Shown here: positions 44,166 to 54,677 of the stretch, in pieces
Numbering within the stretch: the first letter of the stretch is position 1
Layout: every line of letters starts with the position of its first letter
Source of the DNA: an uncultured Verrucomicrobiae bacterium
Lineage (GTDB): Bacteria; Verrucomicrobiota; Verrucomicrobiia; Chthoniobacterales; JAFAMB01
Direction: 5' to 3'
DNA length: 64,000 bases
Assembly: GCA_963813025.1 (NCBI GenBank)
Contig: CAWEXO010000011.1
Location: 32,001-96,000, forward strand
Position numbers and translations under genes: made by a program
The notes under the pieces: model-generated
Database searches by the model: none
Told to the model about the DNA's origin: nothing
The model's input: the letters and a program-made list of their open reading frames with translations, nothing else

Positions 44166-44310
44166 GAACAGCCTGGAGAATGAATGTTCATTACTTTTAT
44201 TGCAAATGTTTTATACATTGTATGTACGCGTTTTAACGTGACGTGGAGCAACATTCGGCAGACCTAGGGCCGGTAGGGCAGTATCTGAGCAGGTCTGGCA
44301 AGGGAAAAAG

Positions 44311-45585
44311 TTAAAGTTTTTCACCGATTGGTGAGTGGCGTTTTTTGAGGACTTGGAGGTAGCGCTCTTCGTCATAAGGGGTGCGGTCCTGCCAGAGCCG
44401 GAAGATGACGCGGATCCATTTAAAGGCCAAGGCGCGCACGGCAGTGTGGTGGGACTTACCGCGGGCCATTTGCTCTTGATAATAGAGCTTGGCCCATTGG
44501 GAATAAGGAATGGAATGAGCCGCGAATTCGTGGAAGCTCTGGCACAGGAATTTGGAGCGAAAGCGCCGCCGCTGGACGCTTTTGGTTTGCCCACTGCGCA
44601 CTTGGACCGGAGCGATTCCGCTTTTTTTCTGTACCTCCAGGGCTTCGGCAAAAGCCTGCCGATTGGAGCCAAAAGCCACCAACAAGCGCGGGGCTAATTG
44701 CGGGCCGGCTCCGGGCAGACTTTCAAAAATGTGCCGATCGGGATGTTTGGCAAACAGAGTGTGGATGGCTTTGTCAAAAGCCTTGATGGAATCTCGCAGC
44801 GGCAACAATTGACTGACCAAACACTTGCAACTCAGCACGGAGGGCTCCAGCAGAGAACGATCCTCGGTGACGGTTTGGGCCCGAGCGATCTTTTCCAGCC
44901 GCTCCTCAATCAAGCTTTGGCTCCGGCTGTGGTGTTGATAGAAAAAGGAGCGCAGGGTCTGGGACTTGGCTTTTTTTAAACTCTGCAGGGTCGGCCAGCG
45001 TTTCAAAAAATGTAGTGCCAGGGTCGTGTCCAGATCGTCGAGGACCTCCAGGGCCAGCGGATAGTAGACTTTGAGTAAGCTGGTGAGTTGGTTTTCGCAC
45101 ACCACGGAGGCCTCGACGGCTTTGCGTCGGTGCTGACCGAGCAAATCCAGTTCCCGCACTACCGGCTCCGGGGGTTGATAAAGCCGGAGCCGATCCCGAT
45201 GGTGATCAACGAGCTCTTCGATCAATTGGCTGTCGAGGGGGTCATCCTTGGCGCCACTGGTAAAGAAGACCTTGCGGTATTCGCTTAAACTCAAAGGATT
45301 GAGCGGATAGAGGTCGATCCAGTCTCCCTGGGTGCGAAGCATTTCAAAGAGTGCTCCCCGATTTTGTTCAAAACCAATGGCCACCCGCCCCTGCGGACCA
45401 GCCAAGCTTTTGAGCTCTTCGAGCCAGGTCCGAACCGAAACGGGATCGGCGCCCAGCTGGAATGTCCGGCATCCTCCCTCCGGACCAGAGCGTTGACAGA
45501 CAGCGTGTTCTTTATCAGCCCAATCGATTCCCACGCTGACCATATAATGGGGATCTGGGACCGGAAACGGATTTGATCGGTTCAT
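44311..45585 (-). CDS. IS110-family DEDD recombinase/transposase
   Basis: GIDW, FEQ, KDDPLD RuvC-like DEDD; LPGAGP, GIAPVQVRSG (catalytic Ser) C-domain; AGGAG RBS. Confidence 0.95.
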   Translation of the reverse strand: MNRSNPFPVPDPHYMVSVGIDWADKEHAVCQRSGPEGGCRTFQLGADPVSVRTWLEELKSLAGPQGRVAIGFEQNRGALFEMLRTQGDWIDLYPLNPLSLSEYRKVFFTSGAKDDPLDSQLIEELVDHHRDRLRLYQPPEPVVRELDLLGQHRRKAVEASVVCENQLTSLLKVYYPLALEVLDDLDTTLALHFLKRWPTLQSLKKAKSQTLRSFFYQHHSRSQSLIEERLEKIARAQTVTEDRSLLEPSVLSCKCLVSQLLPLRDSIKAFDKAIHTLFAKHPDRHIFESLPGAGPQLAPRLLVAFGSNRQAFAEALEVQKKSGIAPVQVRSGQTKSVQRRRFRSKFLCQSFHEFAAHSIPYSQWAKLYYQEQMARGKSHHTAVRALAFKWIRVIFRLWQDRTPYDEERYLQVLKKRHSPIGEKL

Positions 45586-45618
45586 GCTTGCTCCTTTTTT
45601 CTGGTTTTACCCAGCGCG

Positions 45619-45951
45619 AAAAAAGCCGCTTGGCTTTGGCCGTCCGAAATCCGTATAGTTAAGTCGTCGAAGTGTGAAGTGCTCGACCTCAACTAGAGTA
45701 TTCGTTGTGACGAATCAAAGCGCGACCGGCTGGCTCGAAACTCTGCCCTAAAGATCTCGCGGACCCGAAAATCCTATTCGTAGCCAGCCGGCGCGTCCTT
45801 CTTCGCGTGGGCAGCGCGGGATTTTGCCCGACTGCCCTTGGCAATGAAAACCCTTTCTTTTTTCCAAAGCTTTCTTTTCTCCGGGCGGAGTTATTCACAA
45901 GCTGGAGCTCCGACCGGTAGGGCCTCCGACCACAGCTTGCTGAATAACTCC
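45619..45951 (-). ncRNA. Predicted bridge RNA of IS110 copy 1
   Basis: Target-binding loop 45720-45795 with guides at 45766-45772 and 45745-45750; donor-binding loop with guides at 45697-45701 and 45653-45658; terminator-like hairpin 45619-45637; RNA ends inferred. Confidence 0.8.
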
Positions 45952-46408
45952 GGACTTGCTATACGGACTTGCTATACGAAAATTCATTCGAGCCTTGAAC
46001 TTGTTTGAGCCGGGGGTGCAAGTGGCAGCCTGGGTCGTTCCGTCACCGGATTCGCGCCCACGATAGCCCGGAAGCAAGGTACCAATATATGTCGCGAACC
46101 CGGTAAGGGCCGGCTTGAGCGACGCTGTGGCTCATTGGCCATTCCAAGGCGAGGTGACCCCATTTGCTGATTGGTGGTGACGACAAATTCACGGAGATAA
46201 TCTCGAAACCGCCGATCGCCGGATGCGAGCCTTAGCGAAAGCTTATTTGAGGCGTCCCAATTGTGGCGATTCCAATTTCAGATCCCCGAATTCGGTGCCG
46301 TACGACAAAGTTTCCAAGATTGGTCGACATCAATTCATCGGGCGAACGCTTCGCCAGATGATATAAAGTCCAAAACGCCGGGCAGCCTCGAACAGTGGAG
46401 TATCCGGC

Positions 46409-49841: not shown

Positions 49842-50576
49842 ATGAGAACTGGTAATCCGATTTTGACCGATTCGACCTTCGAAGCCGGCGGGCGCGCAAC
49901 CGAAACGATGACTTTAAGCGGGGTGATCAACCGCTCGTTGATTTTGCTGTTGCTCGTAGTTTTGTCCTCCATCGCGACTTGGAACGTGGCTGGCGCGCAC
50001 CCTTCGCTGGCCTATACCGCGTCGATCTTCGGCGCACTCGGGGGCCTGGTCGTGGGCGTGATTACGTCATTCAAGAAATCCTGGGCTGCAGTGACCTCCC
50101 CAGTCTACGCGGTGTTGCAAGGTTTCTTTATAGGCGCCATCTCCTGGTCGCTCGAGAGGCGGTTCCCTGGAATCGCGGTCCAATCGGTTTGCCTCACTTT
50201 TGCGGTGATGTTCGCTTTACTTGGTGCTTATCAGACCGGTTTGATTCGGCCGTCGCAAACCTTTCGTTCTATCATCGTTGGCGCGACGGGGGGAATTCTC
50301 GTGGTCTATTTGGTCAACATGGTTGCGGGTTTATTCTTTCACCGTCCCCTTTCTTTCATCACGGGAACGGGCCCGCTGGCTATCGGGTTTTCGGTCCTGG
50401 TGGTCGGCATTGCCGCGCTCAATCTCGTCCTCGATTTCGACTTTATTGCGACTGGCGTGGCGAATGGAGCGCCGAAAAGCCTCGAGTGGTTTGCCGCTTT
50501 CGGACTGACGGTTACGCTCGTTTGGCTCTACATCGAGATTTTGCGTTTGCTGGCCAAAATCCGCAGCAACGATTAG
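49842..50576 (+). CDS. Bax inhibitor-1/YccA family membrane protein
   Basis: MRTGNP, MT..G, seven TM segments, LVLDFDFI..G..GAPK..EW..AFGL.VTLVWLYIEILRLL. Confidence 0.85.
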   Translation: MRTGNPILTDSTFEAGGRATETMTLSGVINRSLILLLLVVLSSIATWNVAGAHPSLAYTASIFGALGGLVVGVITSFKKSWAAVTSPVYAVLQGFFIGAISWSLERRFPGIAVQSVCLTFAVMFALLGAYQTGLIRPSQTFRSIIVGATGGILVVYLVNMVAGLFFHRPLSFITGTGPLAIGFSVLVVGIAALNLVLDFDFIATGVANGAPKSLEWFAAFGLTVTLVWLYIEILRLLAKIRSND

Positions 50577-50876
50577 CGTGCATCGCTGATCGGGCCTAAG
50601 GGCTCTGTCGGACTCTGATCCTGTCCCGAAGGGGTCTGAGATGGTCTGTCGAGTCTTTTGGGGTGGAGTTATTCACTGCGCGAAGGGTAGGGCGATCCGC
50701 CTTGGCGGACGAGCGCCAGGCGCGAACTTGTTTGAGCCGTCCTGGGCGCGGCATATCCCAGGGCAGGGCTGGAACGAGTCTTCGCTGAAGGACTCAGATG
50801 AAGAGATTATGTCATAACGTGTCTCTGACCCTGTTGGGGTAGGGCAGTATCTGAGCAGGTCTGGCAAGGGAAAAAG

Positions 50877-52151
50877 TTAAAGTTTTTCACCGATTGGTGA
50901 GTGGCGTTTTTTGAGGACTTGGAGGTAGCGCTCTTCGTCATAAGGGGTGCGGTCCTGCCAGAGCCGGAAGATGACGCGGATCCATTTAAAGGCCAAGGCG
51001 CGCACGGCAGTGTGGTGGGACTTACCGCGGGCCATTTGCTCTTGATAATAGAGCTTGGCCCATTGGGAATAAGGAATGGAATGAGCCGCGAATTCGTGGA
51101 AGCTCTGGCACAGGAATTTGGAGCGAAAGCGCCGCCGCTGGACGCTTTTGGTTTGCCCACTGCGCACTTGGACCGGAGCGATTCCGCTTTTTTTCTGTAC
51201 CTCCAGGGCTTGGGCAAAAGCCTGCCGATTGGAGCCAAAAGCCACCAACAAGCGCGGGGCTAATTGCGGGCCGGCTCCGGGCAGACTTTCAAAAATGTGC
51301 CGATCGGGATGTTTGGCAAACAGAGTGTGGATGGCTTTGTCAAAAGCCTTGATGGAATCTCGCAGCGGCAACAATTGACTGACCAAACACTTGCAACTCA
51401 GCACGGAGGGCTCCAGCAGAGAACGATCCTCGGTGACGGTTTGGGCCCGAGCGATCTTTTCCAGCCGCTCCTCAATCAAGCTTTGGCTCCGGCTGTGGTG
51501 TTGATAGAAAAAGGAGCGCAGGGTCTGGGACTTGGCTTTTTTTAAACTCTGCAGGGTCGGCCAGCGTTTCAAAAAATGTAGTGCCAGGGTCGTGTCCAGA
51601 TCGTCGAGGACCTCCAGGGCCAGCGGATAGTAGACTTTGAGTAAGCTGGTGAGTTGGTTTTCGCACACCACGGAGGCCTCGACGGCTTTGCGTCGGTGCT
51701 GACCGAGCAAATCCAGTTCCCGCACTACCGGCTCCGGGGGTTGATAAAGCCGGAGCCGATCCCGATGGTGATCAACGAGCTCTTCGATCAATTGGCTGTC
51801 GAGGGGGTCATCCTTGGCGCCACTAGTAAAGAAGACCTTGCGGTATTCGCTTAAACTCAAAGGATTGAGCGGATAGAGGTCGATCCAGTCTCCCTGGGTG
51901 CGAAGCATTTCAAAGAGTGCTCCCCGATTTTGTTCAAAACCAATGGCCACCCGCCCCTGCGGACCAGCCAAGCTTTTGAGCTCTTCGAGCCAGGTCCGAA
52001 CCGAAACGGGATCGGCGCCCAGCTGGAATGTCCGGCATCCTCCCTCCGGACCAGAGCGTTGACAGACAGCGTGTTCTTTATCAGCCCAATCGATTCCCAC
52101 GCTGACCATATAATGGGGATCTGGGACCGGAAACGGATTTGATCGGTTCAT
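50877..52151 (-). CDS. IS110-family DEDD recombinase/transposase
   Basis: Same as copy 1 except E/Q at AFA[E/Q]ALE. Confidence 0.95.
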   Translation of the reverse strand: MNRSNPFPVPDPHYMVSVGIDWADKEHAVCQRSGPEGGCRTFQLGADPVSVRTWLEELKSLAGPQGRVAIGFEQNRGALFEMLRTQGDWIDLYPLNPLSLSEYRKVFFTSGAKDDPLDSQLIEELVDHHRDRLRLYQPPEPVVRELDLLGQHRRKAVEASVVCENQLTSLLKVYYPLALEVLDDLDTTLALHFLKRWPTLQSLKKAKSQTLRSFFYQHHSRSQSLIEERLEKIARAQTVTEDRSLLEPSVLSCKCLVSQLLPLRDSIKAFDKAIHTLFAKHPDRHIFESLPGAGPQLAPRLLVAFGSNRQAFAQALEVQKKSGIAPVQVRSGQTKSVQRRRFRSKFLCQSFHEFAAHSIPYSQWAKLYYQEQMARGKSHHTAVRALAFKWIRVIFRLWQDRTPYDEERYLQVLKKRHSPIGEKL

Positions 52152-52184
52152 GCTTGCTCCTTTTTTCTGGTTTTACCCAGCGCG

Positions 52185-52517
52185 AAAAAAGCCGCTTGGC
52201 TTTGGCCGTCCGAAATCCGTATAGTTAAGTCGTCGAAGTGTGAAGTGCTCGACCTCAACTAGAGTATTCGTTGTGACGAATCAAAGCGCGACCGGCTGGC
52301 TCGAAACTCTGCCCTAAAGATCTCGCGGACCCGAAAATCCTATTCGTAGCCAGCCGGCGCGTCCTTCTTCGCGTGGGCAGCGCGGGATTTTGCCCGACTG
52401 CCCTTGGCAATGAAAACCCTTTCTTTTTTCCAAAGCTTTCTTTTCTCCGGGCGGAGTTATTCACAAGCTGGAGCTCCGACCGGTAGGGCCTCCGACCACA
52501 GCTTGCTGAATAACTCC
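52185..52517 (-). ncRNA. Predicted bridge RNA of IS110 copy 2
   Basis: Target-binding loop 52286-52361, donor-binding loop 52206-52280, terminator-like hairpin 52185-52203; RNA ends inferred. Confidence 0.8.
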
Positions 52518-52631
52518 GGACTTGCTATACGAAAATTTAGCCGAGCTTCAGCGAGGACTCGTTTGAGCCGGACGCCGCGGTTGCCACCATCCAACCCGGC
52601 TCAAACAAGAAATCAAAGTCCGACACGTCCC

Positions 52632-53225
52632 TCAGGCCGGAGGAGCGGTGAAGGCTTTCTCTTTCCGCTCGCAACGTCCGCGTTCGCGGAGATCGATGCA
52701 GGAGGCCTCAATCCGGACGTTCAGTTTCACTGGGATAAAGCCAAAGCTGTTCGCGATAAATCGTTCGCGCAGGGTGACACATTGATCGTGCACCTGGACA
52801 ACTTGCCGGCAATCGGTGCAGATGATGTGGAAAGCGGCCGGCGATTGTTCGCGGTTCACTTCGTAATATCGATGCTCGCGGTTGAGCTCAATCTCACGGA
52901 TCAGCTGACTGTTCAAGAGCATCGGCAGCGTCCGATAAACCGTCGCCAGCGAAGTCAGCCGGTCAAGTTGCCGAGCTTTGGCCAAAAGGTCCTCGGCGTT
53001 AAAAGGCGCGTCGAAGGCAATGGCAGCGCGCACAATGACCTCGCGCGGTTTCGTCACTCGGAAACCGCTGGCCCGCAAGTACTCCAGCGCCTCGCAGAAG
53101 AGATCGTCGGGAAGCTTAGTCGTCTTCTGGTGGACTAATGCGCCGACATGTGCCGGGCGACGTTTCGCAGCAAAACTCCACGGAGAAATCTGATGTAGCG
53201 CACACTCGGTACGTTCAAATGCCAC
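52632..53225 (-). CDS. Fur family transcriptional regulator
   Basis: GFRVTKPR, SLATVYRTL, HIICTDC, distal C..C-like motif; start uncertain. Confidence 0.85.
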   Translation of the reverse strand: MAFERTECALHQISPWSFAAKRRPAHVGALVHQKTTKLPDDLFCEALEYLRASGFRVTKPREVIVRAAIAFDAPFNAEDLLAKARQLDRLTSLATVYRTLPMLLNSQLIREIELNREHRYYEVNREQSPAAFHIICTDCRQVVQVHDQCVTLRERFIANSFGFIPVKLNVRIEASCIDLRERGRCERKEKAFTAPPA

Positions 53226-53297: not shown

Positions 53298-54677
53298 TTA
53301 CTTCAGCTTGATATGGCGGCGGAGGAAGGTTGGCACGTCGAGATCCTGACCATCGATGATAGTTGGTTCACTCTTCTCAAAGCGCCCACGGGAGACGGGT
53401 TCAAACTGCAAAGTCTCCTGCTTTGGTTCGGGCTTTTTCGGAATGGGCGGTTTTGCTACTTCCGGTCGGGCGACAGCTTTCGGCGCGACTGCCCGTTCCG
53501 GTTCAGCGAGCGCAAGCACTCCTTCGATAGGCTTCGAAGGAGCGGGCGGAGCAGGTGCCTCGGTATTTGCCCGGATCTCGACCGCGGGAATCGAATTCAC
53601 CGAGGGCTCGGACCGGAGCGGTCCAAGCGCTGGACGATTCTCTTCGGCTGAACTTGGTTCGGGCAACGCCGCTCGAGCCGGTGGAAGCGGTTTTTCGGAG
53701 TCATCTCCCAGAGAACTTAAAATACTGACGGCCAGCCGTCCTCCCATGCGGGGATCCACGGCAATACCCATGAACAGATGGGTGGCATCGTTGATATGCC
53801 TGTTGAGCTCCTCCATGATGATTTGCACCTCTCCCAGGGTCACATTCGTGCCGCCGCGAATGTGGATAATGGCGTGAAAGGTGTTCTCGAGAAGCTCTCC
53901 GCGGTTCATGAGTGGATTCTTTAAGGCTTTCGCCAATGCCTCATGCGCCCGATTCTCGCCATCGGCGTCTCCGTAGCCAAAGAGCGCGCGCGCATCCCCA
54001 CGCCGGAGGACAGCGGCAACATCGTCGAAACCAATCTTGAGCAAACCAGGCCGCTGCAACAGGCCGGCGAGGGAACGAATGCTTTGGCTGATCGTAAGAT
54101 CGGCCGCGGCAAAGGCTTCATGCACACCCATTCGAGGCAAAGCGATTTCTGCCATTCGATCGTTTTCAAAGCAAACGACCGCATCGCACACCGAGCGCAG
54201 TTCGCGTAAGCCGGCCTCGGCTTGCGCGCAGCGCCGCCGGCCCTCAAATCCGAACGGCAAGGCCGCGAATGCCAGGACGAGCGCGTTTTCTTCACGGGCT
54301 AATCGCGCGACAAAGGGACCTGCACCTGAGCCAGTGCCGCCACCCAGGCCGATACAGAGGAAAATGGCCGTAGCGCCCCGCAGAACCGAGCGAATTTCGT
54401 CGCTGGCCTCATCCGCAGCGGCCAAGCCCATTTCGGGATCTCCTCCGGCCCCGAGTCCGCGCGTGAGGTTGCGCCCAAGTTGTACCTTTTGCGCGGCAAC
54501 CGACGCAGCCAAGGACTGTACATCGGTGTTAATCGCGACCATCTCCACCCCGTCGACACCGTCCAGCATCACCCGATCAAGCACGTTTGACCCTGCGCCG
54601 CCGATTCCGATGACTTTGATTGTCACTGAGCTATCCAGGCTGTCGCCCCGCTCGTACTGCCGATTTAGTTGCACCAT
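53298..54677 (-). CDS. ftsZ: Cell division protein FtsZ
   Basis: IKVIGIGGAG, NTD, GLGAGG, GLGGGTGSG, PF.FEG, C-terminal LDVPTFLR. Confidence 0.96.
   Translation of the reverse strand: MVQLNRQYERGDSLDSSVTIKVIGIGGAGSNVLDRVMLDGVDGVEMVAINTDVQSLAASVAAQKVQLGRNLTRGLGAGGDPEMGLAAADEASDEIRSVLRGATAIFLCIGLGGGTGSGAGPFVARLAREENALVLAFAALPFGFEGRRRCAQAEAGLRELRSVCDAVVCFENDRMAEIALPRMGVHEAFAAADLTISQSIRSLAGLLQRPGLLKIGFDDVAAVLRRGDARALFGYGDADGENRAHEALAKALKNPLMNRGELLENTFHAIIHIRGGTNVTLGEVQIIMEELNRHINDATHLFMGIAVDPRMGGRLAVSILSSLGDDSEKPLPPARAALPEPSSAEENRPALGPLRSEPSVNSIPAVEIRANTEAPAPPAPSKPIEGVLALAEPERAVAPKAVARPEVAKPPIPKKPEPKQETLQFEPVSRGRFEKSEPTIIDGQDLDVPTFLRRHIKLK

Follow-up and report, generated by a model that had tools for sequence, protein, structure and literature searches.

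The bridge RNA of an IS110-family element whose target and donor have a single G in common, with position 8 as a probable additional handshake position

Background

Can an RNA-guided recombinase of the IS110 type insert its element where target and donor have only one core base in common? This question is raised by a locus of an uncultured Verrucomicrobiae bacterium (GCA_963813025.1, contig CAWEXO010000011.1, positions 32,001-96,000), which we analysed as a single window of 64,000 nt; all coordinates below are those of this window. In the stretch 52216-52316 (minus strand) the original prediction had seen, past each right guide, bases complementary to the junctions formed by strand exchange rather than to the substrates, together with a core of a single nucleotide that would relax the constraints on the target.

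The system to which such an element has to be compared is IS621 of E. coli (IS110 family, IS110 group). According to the available text of PMC11208158, the IS621 substrates are numbered 1-14, the CT core occupies positions 8-9 and top-strand cleavage falls between 9 and 10. Positions 1-9 are covered by the left target guide, 1-8 by the left donor guide and 8-14 by the right guides. Past each right guide follow two bases, the handshake guides; once the top strands have been exchanged, they pair with positions 7 and 6 of the other DNA. In published work, as far as the available text goes, the core is treated as a dinucleotide shared by both substrates, and for IS621 it is described as 'invariant' (PMC13626964). 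Design rules for bridge-recombinase editors likewise demand an identical two-base core in donor and target, in the available portions of a Perry 2025 preprint and of Hiraizumi 2026, and one recent pipeline, in the available part of its description, admits a 'core of length c' as well as elements for which no core is called. A core of one base, or one that differs between the substrates, is nowhere described in the available text of the literature searched, which included PMC11208160, PMC11208158, PMC11187229, PMC13626964, 10.1101/2025.05.14.653916, 10.1101/2025.10.25.684509 and 10.64898/2026.10.21.760802; the supplementary tables of Durrant 2024 may list core lengths.

Results and Discussion

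The element, its copies and its target

The stretch under study falls within the bridge RNA of an IS110-family element of 1,685 bp (50845-52530, minus strand), in the 378-nt non-coding stretch upstream of the recombinase gene. The gene (50877-52151, minus) encodes 424 amino acids with an N-terminal DEDD RuvC-like domain (PF01548, E 1.8e-20) and a C-terminal Tnp domain (PF02371, E 1.2e-8), and the product scores 148.9 bits with the NCBI curated model NF033542, 'IS110 family RNA-guided transposase', whose cut-off is 140. When it was aligned with six relatives, D21, E73, D115 and D118 were invariant in all seven sequences; S331 lies in an SG motif, is kept in six of the seven, and may be the counterpart of the catalytic S241 of IS621, as read from the motif and not from a residue-by-residue alignment. 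Because phmmer aligns the C-terminal part alone to the solved transposases of IS621 (E 7e-6) and ISCro4 (E 1.5e-6), the recombinase appears to be a distant relative of the studied enzymes; those of its own clade are 37-69% identical to it. The neighbouring genes are ordinary, encoding a Bax-inhibitor-like membrane protein (49842-50576, plus), a Fur-family regulator (52632-53225, minus) and FtsZ (53298-54677, minus).

The genome contains 10 nearly full-length copies of the element at different sites, with 97-100% mutual identity, and one left-end fragment. The aligned copies measure 1,685 bp each, except one of 1,684, and differ at 35 columns; the left end accounts for just three of these and the guide loops for none. 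Outside the element boundaries their similarity ends. Ten full copies at different sites suggest an active IS110-type insertion sequence.

Concerning the target, the uninterrupted empty sequence TTTTCGCCCTACC occurs 143 times in the genome, and 227 sites, 127 of them exact, are found within one mismatch of AATTTTCGCCCTACC. The element was found at one 13-14 nt sequence only. We read the target as AATTTTC-G-CCCTACC and the element's joined ends as ...CAGATACT-G-TATAG..., so that G is the sole common base. The left half of the target, AAATTTTC (52531-52538, minus), which corresponds to IS621 positions 1-8 and belongs to a REP-like repeat, is conserved to the left of all 11 left junctions and in the 143 empty sites; the right half, CCCTACC (50838-50844, minus), is conserved to the right of all 10 copies and in the empty sites. 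Between them the G is present once when the site is empty and at both junctions when the element is inserted, its left copy being at 52530 and its right copy at 50845 (minus; G in 9 of the 10 copies, A in one). Every left junction (11/11) is TTTTCG/TATAG, the slash marking the boundary, and continues as TTTTCG/TATAGCAAG. On the right, 8 of the 10 junctions are CAGATACTG/CCCTA, another has an A replacing the G, and the last has lost an A further upstream by a 1-nt deletion. The original prediction that target and donor (TTTTC-G-CCCTA and ATACT-G-TATAG) have only this base in common is thus borne out by the 143 empty sites and by all junctions. The copy with the A is L004, on contig C4 of the same genome, with the right junction ACTA/CCCTA and a left junction that retains the G; the change is most simply a point mutation, one of the 35 variable columns.

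The repeat that serves as target is REP-like, partly palindromic (...GGCTCGAATAAATTTTCGCCCTACCGG...) and scattered through the whole genome, for instance at 52531-52650 and 50700-50844 of the window. The 13-nt site is present in 143 exact copies, and both flanks of the element are matched over longer stretches dozens of times, in either orientation. A second copy of the same insertion sequence is present in the window at 44272-45980 (minus).

The bridge RNA scaffold

The left end of the element (52152-52529, minus), outside of which the copies diverge, is non-coding and folds better than its shuffled versions (z -5.3). No Rfam family reached its gathering score in the window, and the stretch 52100-52600 gave chance-level matches only. 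We therefore describe the RNA from its relatives: RNAalifold gave, for six related left ends, a consensus structure in which a CGAA:UUCG helix closes each of two internal loops, and a covariance model (R1) was built from these six, L027, which MAFFT had misaligned, being excluded from the seed. The model matches 84 places, corresponding to 67 distinct RNAs, in 95 loci with related recombinases. In the resulting alignment, which is fitted to the model and hence favours the structure somewhat, the scaffold is paired in 94% of cells and compensatory changes occur at 25 of the 29 pairs, a level reached by 0 of 500 shuffles; sliding the partners of the helices lowers pairing to 29-48%. From this comparison the stretch appears to be the guide region of a bridge RNA with a target-binding and a donor-binding loop.

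On the minus strand the RNA begins with a 5' stem-loop (52452-52519), a long inverted repeat whose arms, GTTATTCA and GAATAAC, are also found in close relatives. The predicted target-binding loop with its outer stem and CGAA:UUCG closing helix follows at 52292-52359, as given by RNAalifold and the covariance model, its outer helix being 96.9% paired with compensatory changes at 13 of 15 pairs; the donor-binding loop, closed by the same kind of helix, is placed by the covariance model at 52206-52271, with helix 2 paired at 97.1%.

Two further features of the stem-loop were observed. At its top, GCCCTACCGG (52480-52489, minus) is identical in all ten bases to the right half of the target repeat, and the right target guide UAGGGC is complementary to it; a fragment of the repeat may have been captured here, or the sequence may act as an internal decoy for the guide. 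The sequence of its 3' arm, GTGAATAACTCC, recurs at 50665-50676 (minus), about 170 bp past the right end, where it may be the remnant of another left end.

Guides and register

Three of the four guides match their DNA exactly. The left target guide AGGAUUUUCG (52332-52341, minus) has the same sense as the target top strand ATTTTCG and runs through C8 and G9; the right target guide UAGGG, with the C that pairs G9 (52311-52316, minus), is the reverse complement of GCCCTA at the right junction; and the right donor guide CUAUA, again followed by a C for G9 (52219-52224, minus), is the reverse complement of the left-end GTATAG and keeps the same spacing to the closing helix in the distinct relatives listed. 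The left donor guide ACUCUAGUUGA (52255-52265, minus) was located by homology and is imperfect: by eye it pairs the right-end sequence CTCAGATA only with one bulged U and one mismatch. Its homologous spot in the relatives is ACUCAG plus 3 nt, equal to their right ends. The right end itself (50846-50876, minus), which aligns with those of the relatives, contains the left donor CTCAGATACT and a -35 half, TTGCCA (50867-50862). Another candidate for the left donor guide, CGAAUACU, matches the donor CAGATACT at 6 of 8 bases and was rejected, given that its CGAA is in the closing helix and its AAUACU is conserved despite differing donors; the resemblance of this clade-conserved sequence (within 52255-52271, minus) to the donor is probably due to chance.

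To number the bases as in IS621, the 3' strand of the loops was compared with that of the relatives. There, the first five bases stand for positions 14-10 and are followed by those opposite 9, 8, 7 and 6; one further base precedes the closing helix. The donor loop of our element fits this register exactly (CUAUA-C-G-G-A-U), as in the distinct relatives listed, and the right end aligns with theirs base for base, as CTCAG, 5 nt and position 9. Since the donor-loop register and the right-end alignment agree, the common G would be position 9, at which IS621 and most relatives have a T, and position 8 is then occupied by C on the target side and by T on the donor side. Covariation is also seen in the donor-loop base opposite position 9, which is C with G, U with A and A with T. 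The tail of the target loop, with 5 nt, exceeds by one base the 4 nt of most relatives, and its register consequently depends on the donor side and on the junctions.

This longer tail permits another placement of the crossover, before the G (ACT/GTATAG and TTTTC/GCCCTA), by which the donor would keep CT at positions 8-9, the target would have TC and the two would share no base. The junctions by themselves do not tell on which side of the shared G the crossover lies, and if the target loop is counted from its closing helix as in most relatives, its A and G stand opposite the donor T and C, a canonical CT. Such a placement is nevertheless highly improbable: the donor loop, the left-end start and the length of the right end all put the G at position 9 by homology, and a donor cut after the G, combined with a single G at each junction, implies that the target is cut after the G as well. 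Five-base tails are not unique to this element, being found also in L077 and L102. Moreover, all 41 usable relatives have, opposite position 9, a base that pairs with the target, although the pipeline required the same position 9 at both junctions. With the G at position 9, the crossover would take place directly after it.

Complementarity of the tails in this element

We then considered the bases that follow each right guide. The right target guide with the two bases after it, TAGGGCAG, lies at 52316-52309, and the right junction CTGCCCTA to which the original prediction had compared it lies at 50847-50840 (minus); the right donor guide with three further bases, CTATACGGA, lies at 52224-52216; its counterpart, the left junction TTCGTATAG, is found at 52533-52525 (minus) and has the reverse complement CTATACGAA. 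All four strings are thus located as proposed. In the window CTGCCCTA occurs 4 times against 1.09 expected and TYCGTATAG 5 times against 0.29 expected, every match of either being within one of the two copies of the insertion sequence.

In the target-loop tail AGAG (52307-52310, minus), the A (52310) fits T8 of the donor and mismatches C8 of the target, and the next base, G (52309), fits C7 of the donor and forms only a wobble with T7 of the target. In the donor-loop tail GGA (52216-52218, minus), the bases fit C8, T7 (by a wobble) and T6 of the target, the partners that they would meet after exchange, but the donor itself offers partners for the GG in its T8 (wobble) and C7 (Watson-Crick), and the third base alone, A, separates T6 of the target from A6 of the donor (an A:A mismatch). 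Before exchange, the cognate pairing therefore includes an A:C mismatch at position 8 and a G:T wobble at 7 in the target loop, and a G:T wobble at 8 and a G:C pair at 7 in the donor loop. Counted over positions 6-8 in both loops, two Watson-Crick and two wobble pairs before exchange become four Watson-Crick pairs and one wobble after it. For comparison, positions 6-7 of IS621 have one Watson-Crick pair before exchange and three after, and its authors propose that handshake pairing drives insertion and disfavours excision (both from the available text of PMC13626964). The proposal that these bases fit the post-exchange junctions rather than the substrates can be maintained for both loops, with compensatory changes throughout the clade, but has to be tempered for the donor loop, whose GG fits the pre-exchange donor about as well.

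It should be considered that in a single element two or three matching tail bases occur by chance with a frequency of about 1/16 for each tail, and one shared base with about 1/4. Such matches are weak, and the argument for a handshake comes from the comparison of relatives. The GG is also conserved across the clade and is predicted to pair with the CU of ACUCAG in the free RNA (helix 3, 73.9% paired); its fit to the target may reflect a fixed feature of the RNA that limits the choice of targets.

In the copy at 44272-45980 the left-end start has a 13-nt tandem duplication (TATAGCAAGTCCG twice). The same variant is found in L007 and L011, at three loci in all, one of which is a left-end fragment. 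The internal junction of the duplication, TCCG/TATAG, is complementary at 9 of 9 bases to the right donor guide with its GGA tail, and the boundary looks as if it had been made by the recombinase at a pseudo-site fitting the handshake bases.

Covariation of the tails in relatives

To evaluate the tails over the whole clade, we started from the 67 distinct RNAs, 45 of which had a recognisable left-end start and downstream sequence. In 41 of these 45 the right junction matched the right target guide, and the other four (L026, L123, L100 and L091) were dropped. The 41 usable insertions represent 32 distinct combinations of donor, target and tail, among which related rows are not independent. A combination was counted only if its donor and its target differ at the position scored.

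At position 7 (n=25), the target-loop tail is Watson-Crick complementary to the donor in 20 combinations and to the target in 3; for the donor-loop tail the Watson-Crick partner is the target in 17 combinations and the donor in 7. Position 8 (n=13) gives 11 combinations with a donor-loop tail that is Watson-Crick complementary to the target, against 1 in which it is complementary to the donor. Target-loop tails are divided at this position: they fit the donor in 6, namely our element with L051, L022, L027, L056, L060 and L081, and the target in 7, which are six gammaproteobacterial combinations and L088. Across the relatives the target-loop tail covaries with positions 7-9 of the donor. Matching tails were found also in lineages with unusual donors or targets, for example L119, L062, L106, L105 and L111.

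These counts bear on the explanation that the complementarity is a coincidence, the AGAGU and GGA tails being motifs of the clade's scaffold for binding of the protein or folding of the RNA. Both tails are near the clade consensus, the GG is predicted to pair inside the free RNA, and two or three bases can match by the chance level given above. We regard this explanation as quite unlikely, since the tails change so as to match altered donors or targets, in the target loop of L119, L056, L062, L106, L027 and L105 and in the donor loop of L119, L106, L062 and L111, and since the bias at position 7 is towards the non-cognate DNA (20 vs 3 and 17 vs 7); in addition, the handshake rule was demonstrated experimentally for IS621, according to the available text of PMC11208158 and PMC13626964. 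The comparison of sequences thus indicates that the tail rule is real across the clade and that at position 7 it is the published handshake.

The extension of this pattern to position 8 recurs in several lineages. L022 (position 9 = A) and L027 (position 9 = G) have a C in the target and a T in the donor at position 8, an A in the target loop and a G in the donor loop, and both have a C at position 8 in the left target guide. L056 shows the reciprocal pattern at position 8 with T and A. L051, whose recombinase is 69% identical, has the same guides as our element and the junctions tttttc/G/TATAG and TTACT/G/ccctacc.

Two observations on the taxonomic side can be added. L051 is on a 3.4-kb contig titled Candidatus Acidiferrales, of another phylum, and its insertion site is nearly the same (GTTTTTC-G-CCCTACCG); either the element and the target repeat are common to different phyla or the short contig was mis-binned. 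In a subgroup of Colwellia, Psychromonas, Pseudoalteromonas, Thalassotalea and related bacteria (L069, L072, L075, L067, L090, L080, L086 and L074), position 8 is G in the donor and C in the target in 8 of the 8 insertions listed, and a G is found at position 8 in both loops, so that both fit the target; the shared bases there are TT (positions 9 and 10).

Position 8 in strand exchange

Taken together, these data make it probable that the bridge RNA belongs to an active IS110-family element with a single shared G at position 9 and with position 8 as an extra handshake position. The target loop would read the REP-like repeat at AATTTTC-G-CCCTA, and the donor loop the joined ends of the element. 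On the target's bottom strand, position 8 would be read by the C of the left target guide; on the top strand, the A of the target loop would fit the donor T and the G of the donor loop the target C. Position 8 would in this way shift from the core to the handshake, with poorer pairing before strand exchange and better pairing after it, and the better post-exchange pairing would favour insertion over excision, as in IS621. A bias towards insertion would follow from the same pairing.

The number of bases between the top- and the bottom-strand cuts can be approached from the junctions, whose bases would result from cuts staggered by one base, from a stagger of two bases with a C/T mismatch, or from transfer limited to the top strand. 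If the chemistry of IS621 were unchanged, with cuts two bases apart around positions 8-9, the C:A and T:G heteroduplexes would always have been resolved to the top-strand version. The two-base offset with bottom-strand cleavage is what the IS621 structures show, in the available text of PMC11208158; besides, the two bases at position 8, C and T, are related by a pyrimidine transition, and the G of the donor loop can pair with either. However, unbiased resolution of a two-base heteroduplex would leave swapped junctions (left TTTTTG, right ATACCG) in about half of the cases, and neither the 11 left nor the 10 right junctions include any. Few of the empty sites (3/227) have C>T at position 8, and L051 retains the same arrangement at 69% protein identity. 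We consider the two-base explanation unlikely on these grounds. The C>T changes are not enriched over those at other positions, and taken as excision scars they argue neither way. The absence of swapped junctions fits a one-base offset, a strongly biased repair, or top-strand transfer followed by replication.

A model dominated by the top strand has in fact been put forward. Transfer of mainly the top strand (copy-out, paste-in) was proposed for CazIS110-1 in the available text of 10.1101/2025.10.25.684509, and mainly top-strand transfer also from cell-free work on IS621 in that of 10.64898/2026.08.31.748434. Those experiments used CT-core elements; by analogy, a top-strand copy-out, paste-in model would explain why the junctions always carry the position-8 bases of the top strand.

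In a stronger form, which we put forward only tentatively, the recombinase here, and independently those of L022, L027 and L056, uses one base common to donor and target, the second core position having become a third handshake base. If this is true, the 11 left and 10 right junctions are in vivo evidence either for inheritance of the top strand only (transfer, then replication) or for cuts one base apart, and donor and target need not share position 8 for bridge recombination.

The idea that a one-base core relaxes the constraints on the target found no support. All insertions and the 143 empty sites share one sequence, and the C of the left target guide and the G of the donor loop still specify position 8 of the target; the constraint would rather move from 'same as donor' to 'fits donor loop'.

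The circle junction and a split promoter

The joined ends of the element can be examined also through the promoter that they would rebuild. The left end starts with a -10 half, TATAGC (52524-52529, minus), and the putative promoter would be complete only in the excised circle, where it is joined to the right-end TTGCCA with a spacer of 17 nt if one G is kept. In the relatives a TTG hexamer is found at a spacer of 17 in 9 and of 18 in 5 of 21 distinct rows, some of the others being cut off at the start of the extracted sequence. A promoter reconstituted across the joined right and left ends (TTGCCA, 17 nt, TATAGC), apparently conserved at a spacer of 17 or 18 in 14 of the 21 relatives, is consistent with the circle junction GATACTGTATAG that had been predicted.

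Direct traces of such a junction were also searched for. Neither a circle nor a tandem right-end-to-left-end junction was found in the genome's own assembly. Among sequencing runs the element was found in one soil DNA run, and no RNA run was listed with it; the contigs of that DNA run contain no joint of right to left end, break at 50838 and 52537, and have loose ends that read as empty sites; two further runs of that study gave no contigs for the locus. In metagenome contigs there were 0 matches to the junction pattern with 0-3 bases between the ends, and 0 matches to the 25-nt left-end start.

Comparison with known systems

Our element resembles IS621 in many respects. The recombinase has DEDD and serine domains; the bridge RNA is in the left end, with the target loop before the donor loop; the left guides read the bottom strand and the right guides the top strand; the tails match the non-cognate DNA; each of the two ends, right and left, carries one half of the promoter; and insertion takes place into REP-type repeats. 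The differences concern mostly the core and its surroundings. Position 9 is G instead of the 'almost invariant' T of IS621, and position 8 differs between target and donor, while IS621 has CT in both: the identical two-base core is absent here, with CG in the target and TG in the donor. The handshake would begin at position 8 and not at 7, and the left donor guide, by homology, ends at position 6 and not at 8. The two loops, unlike those of IS621, are each closed by a CGAA:UUCG helix, and the protein is only distantly alike, phmmer aligning the C-terminal part alone (E 7e-6).

The closest comparison is with the IS110 clade L022-L127 from Verrucomicrobiae, Acidobacteriota, Gammaproteobacteria, Planctomycetota and others, which has the same RNA scaffold (R1), a left-end start TATAG and a right end of CTCAG plus 5-6 nt. 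Unlike our element, most members have a two-base CT common to target and donor. By eye, one shared base was seen in our element and in L051, L022, L027, L056, L081, L060 and L088, and a few relatives share three or four.

Conclusions

As far as can be judged from its sequence and that of its relatives, the element appears to work like IS621 but without an identical CT core, a small but real variation on known RNA-guided recombination. Bridge recombinases are under development as genome editors, and a natural, active element with one shared base suggests that position 8 could be set separately for donor and target, provided that the tails of the RNA match, which would enlarge the range of usable site pairs. 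The advance is a modest one, since the logic follows the published handshake principle and pipelines in the field already allow a variable core length. The uniform junctions bear also on a current question about this family, that is, whether the bottom strand is exchanged in cells at all.
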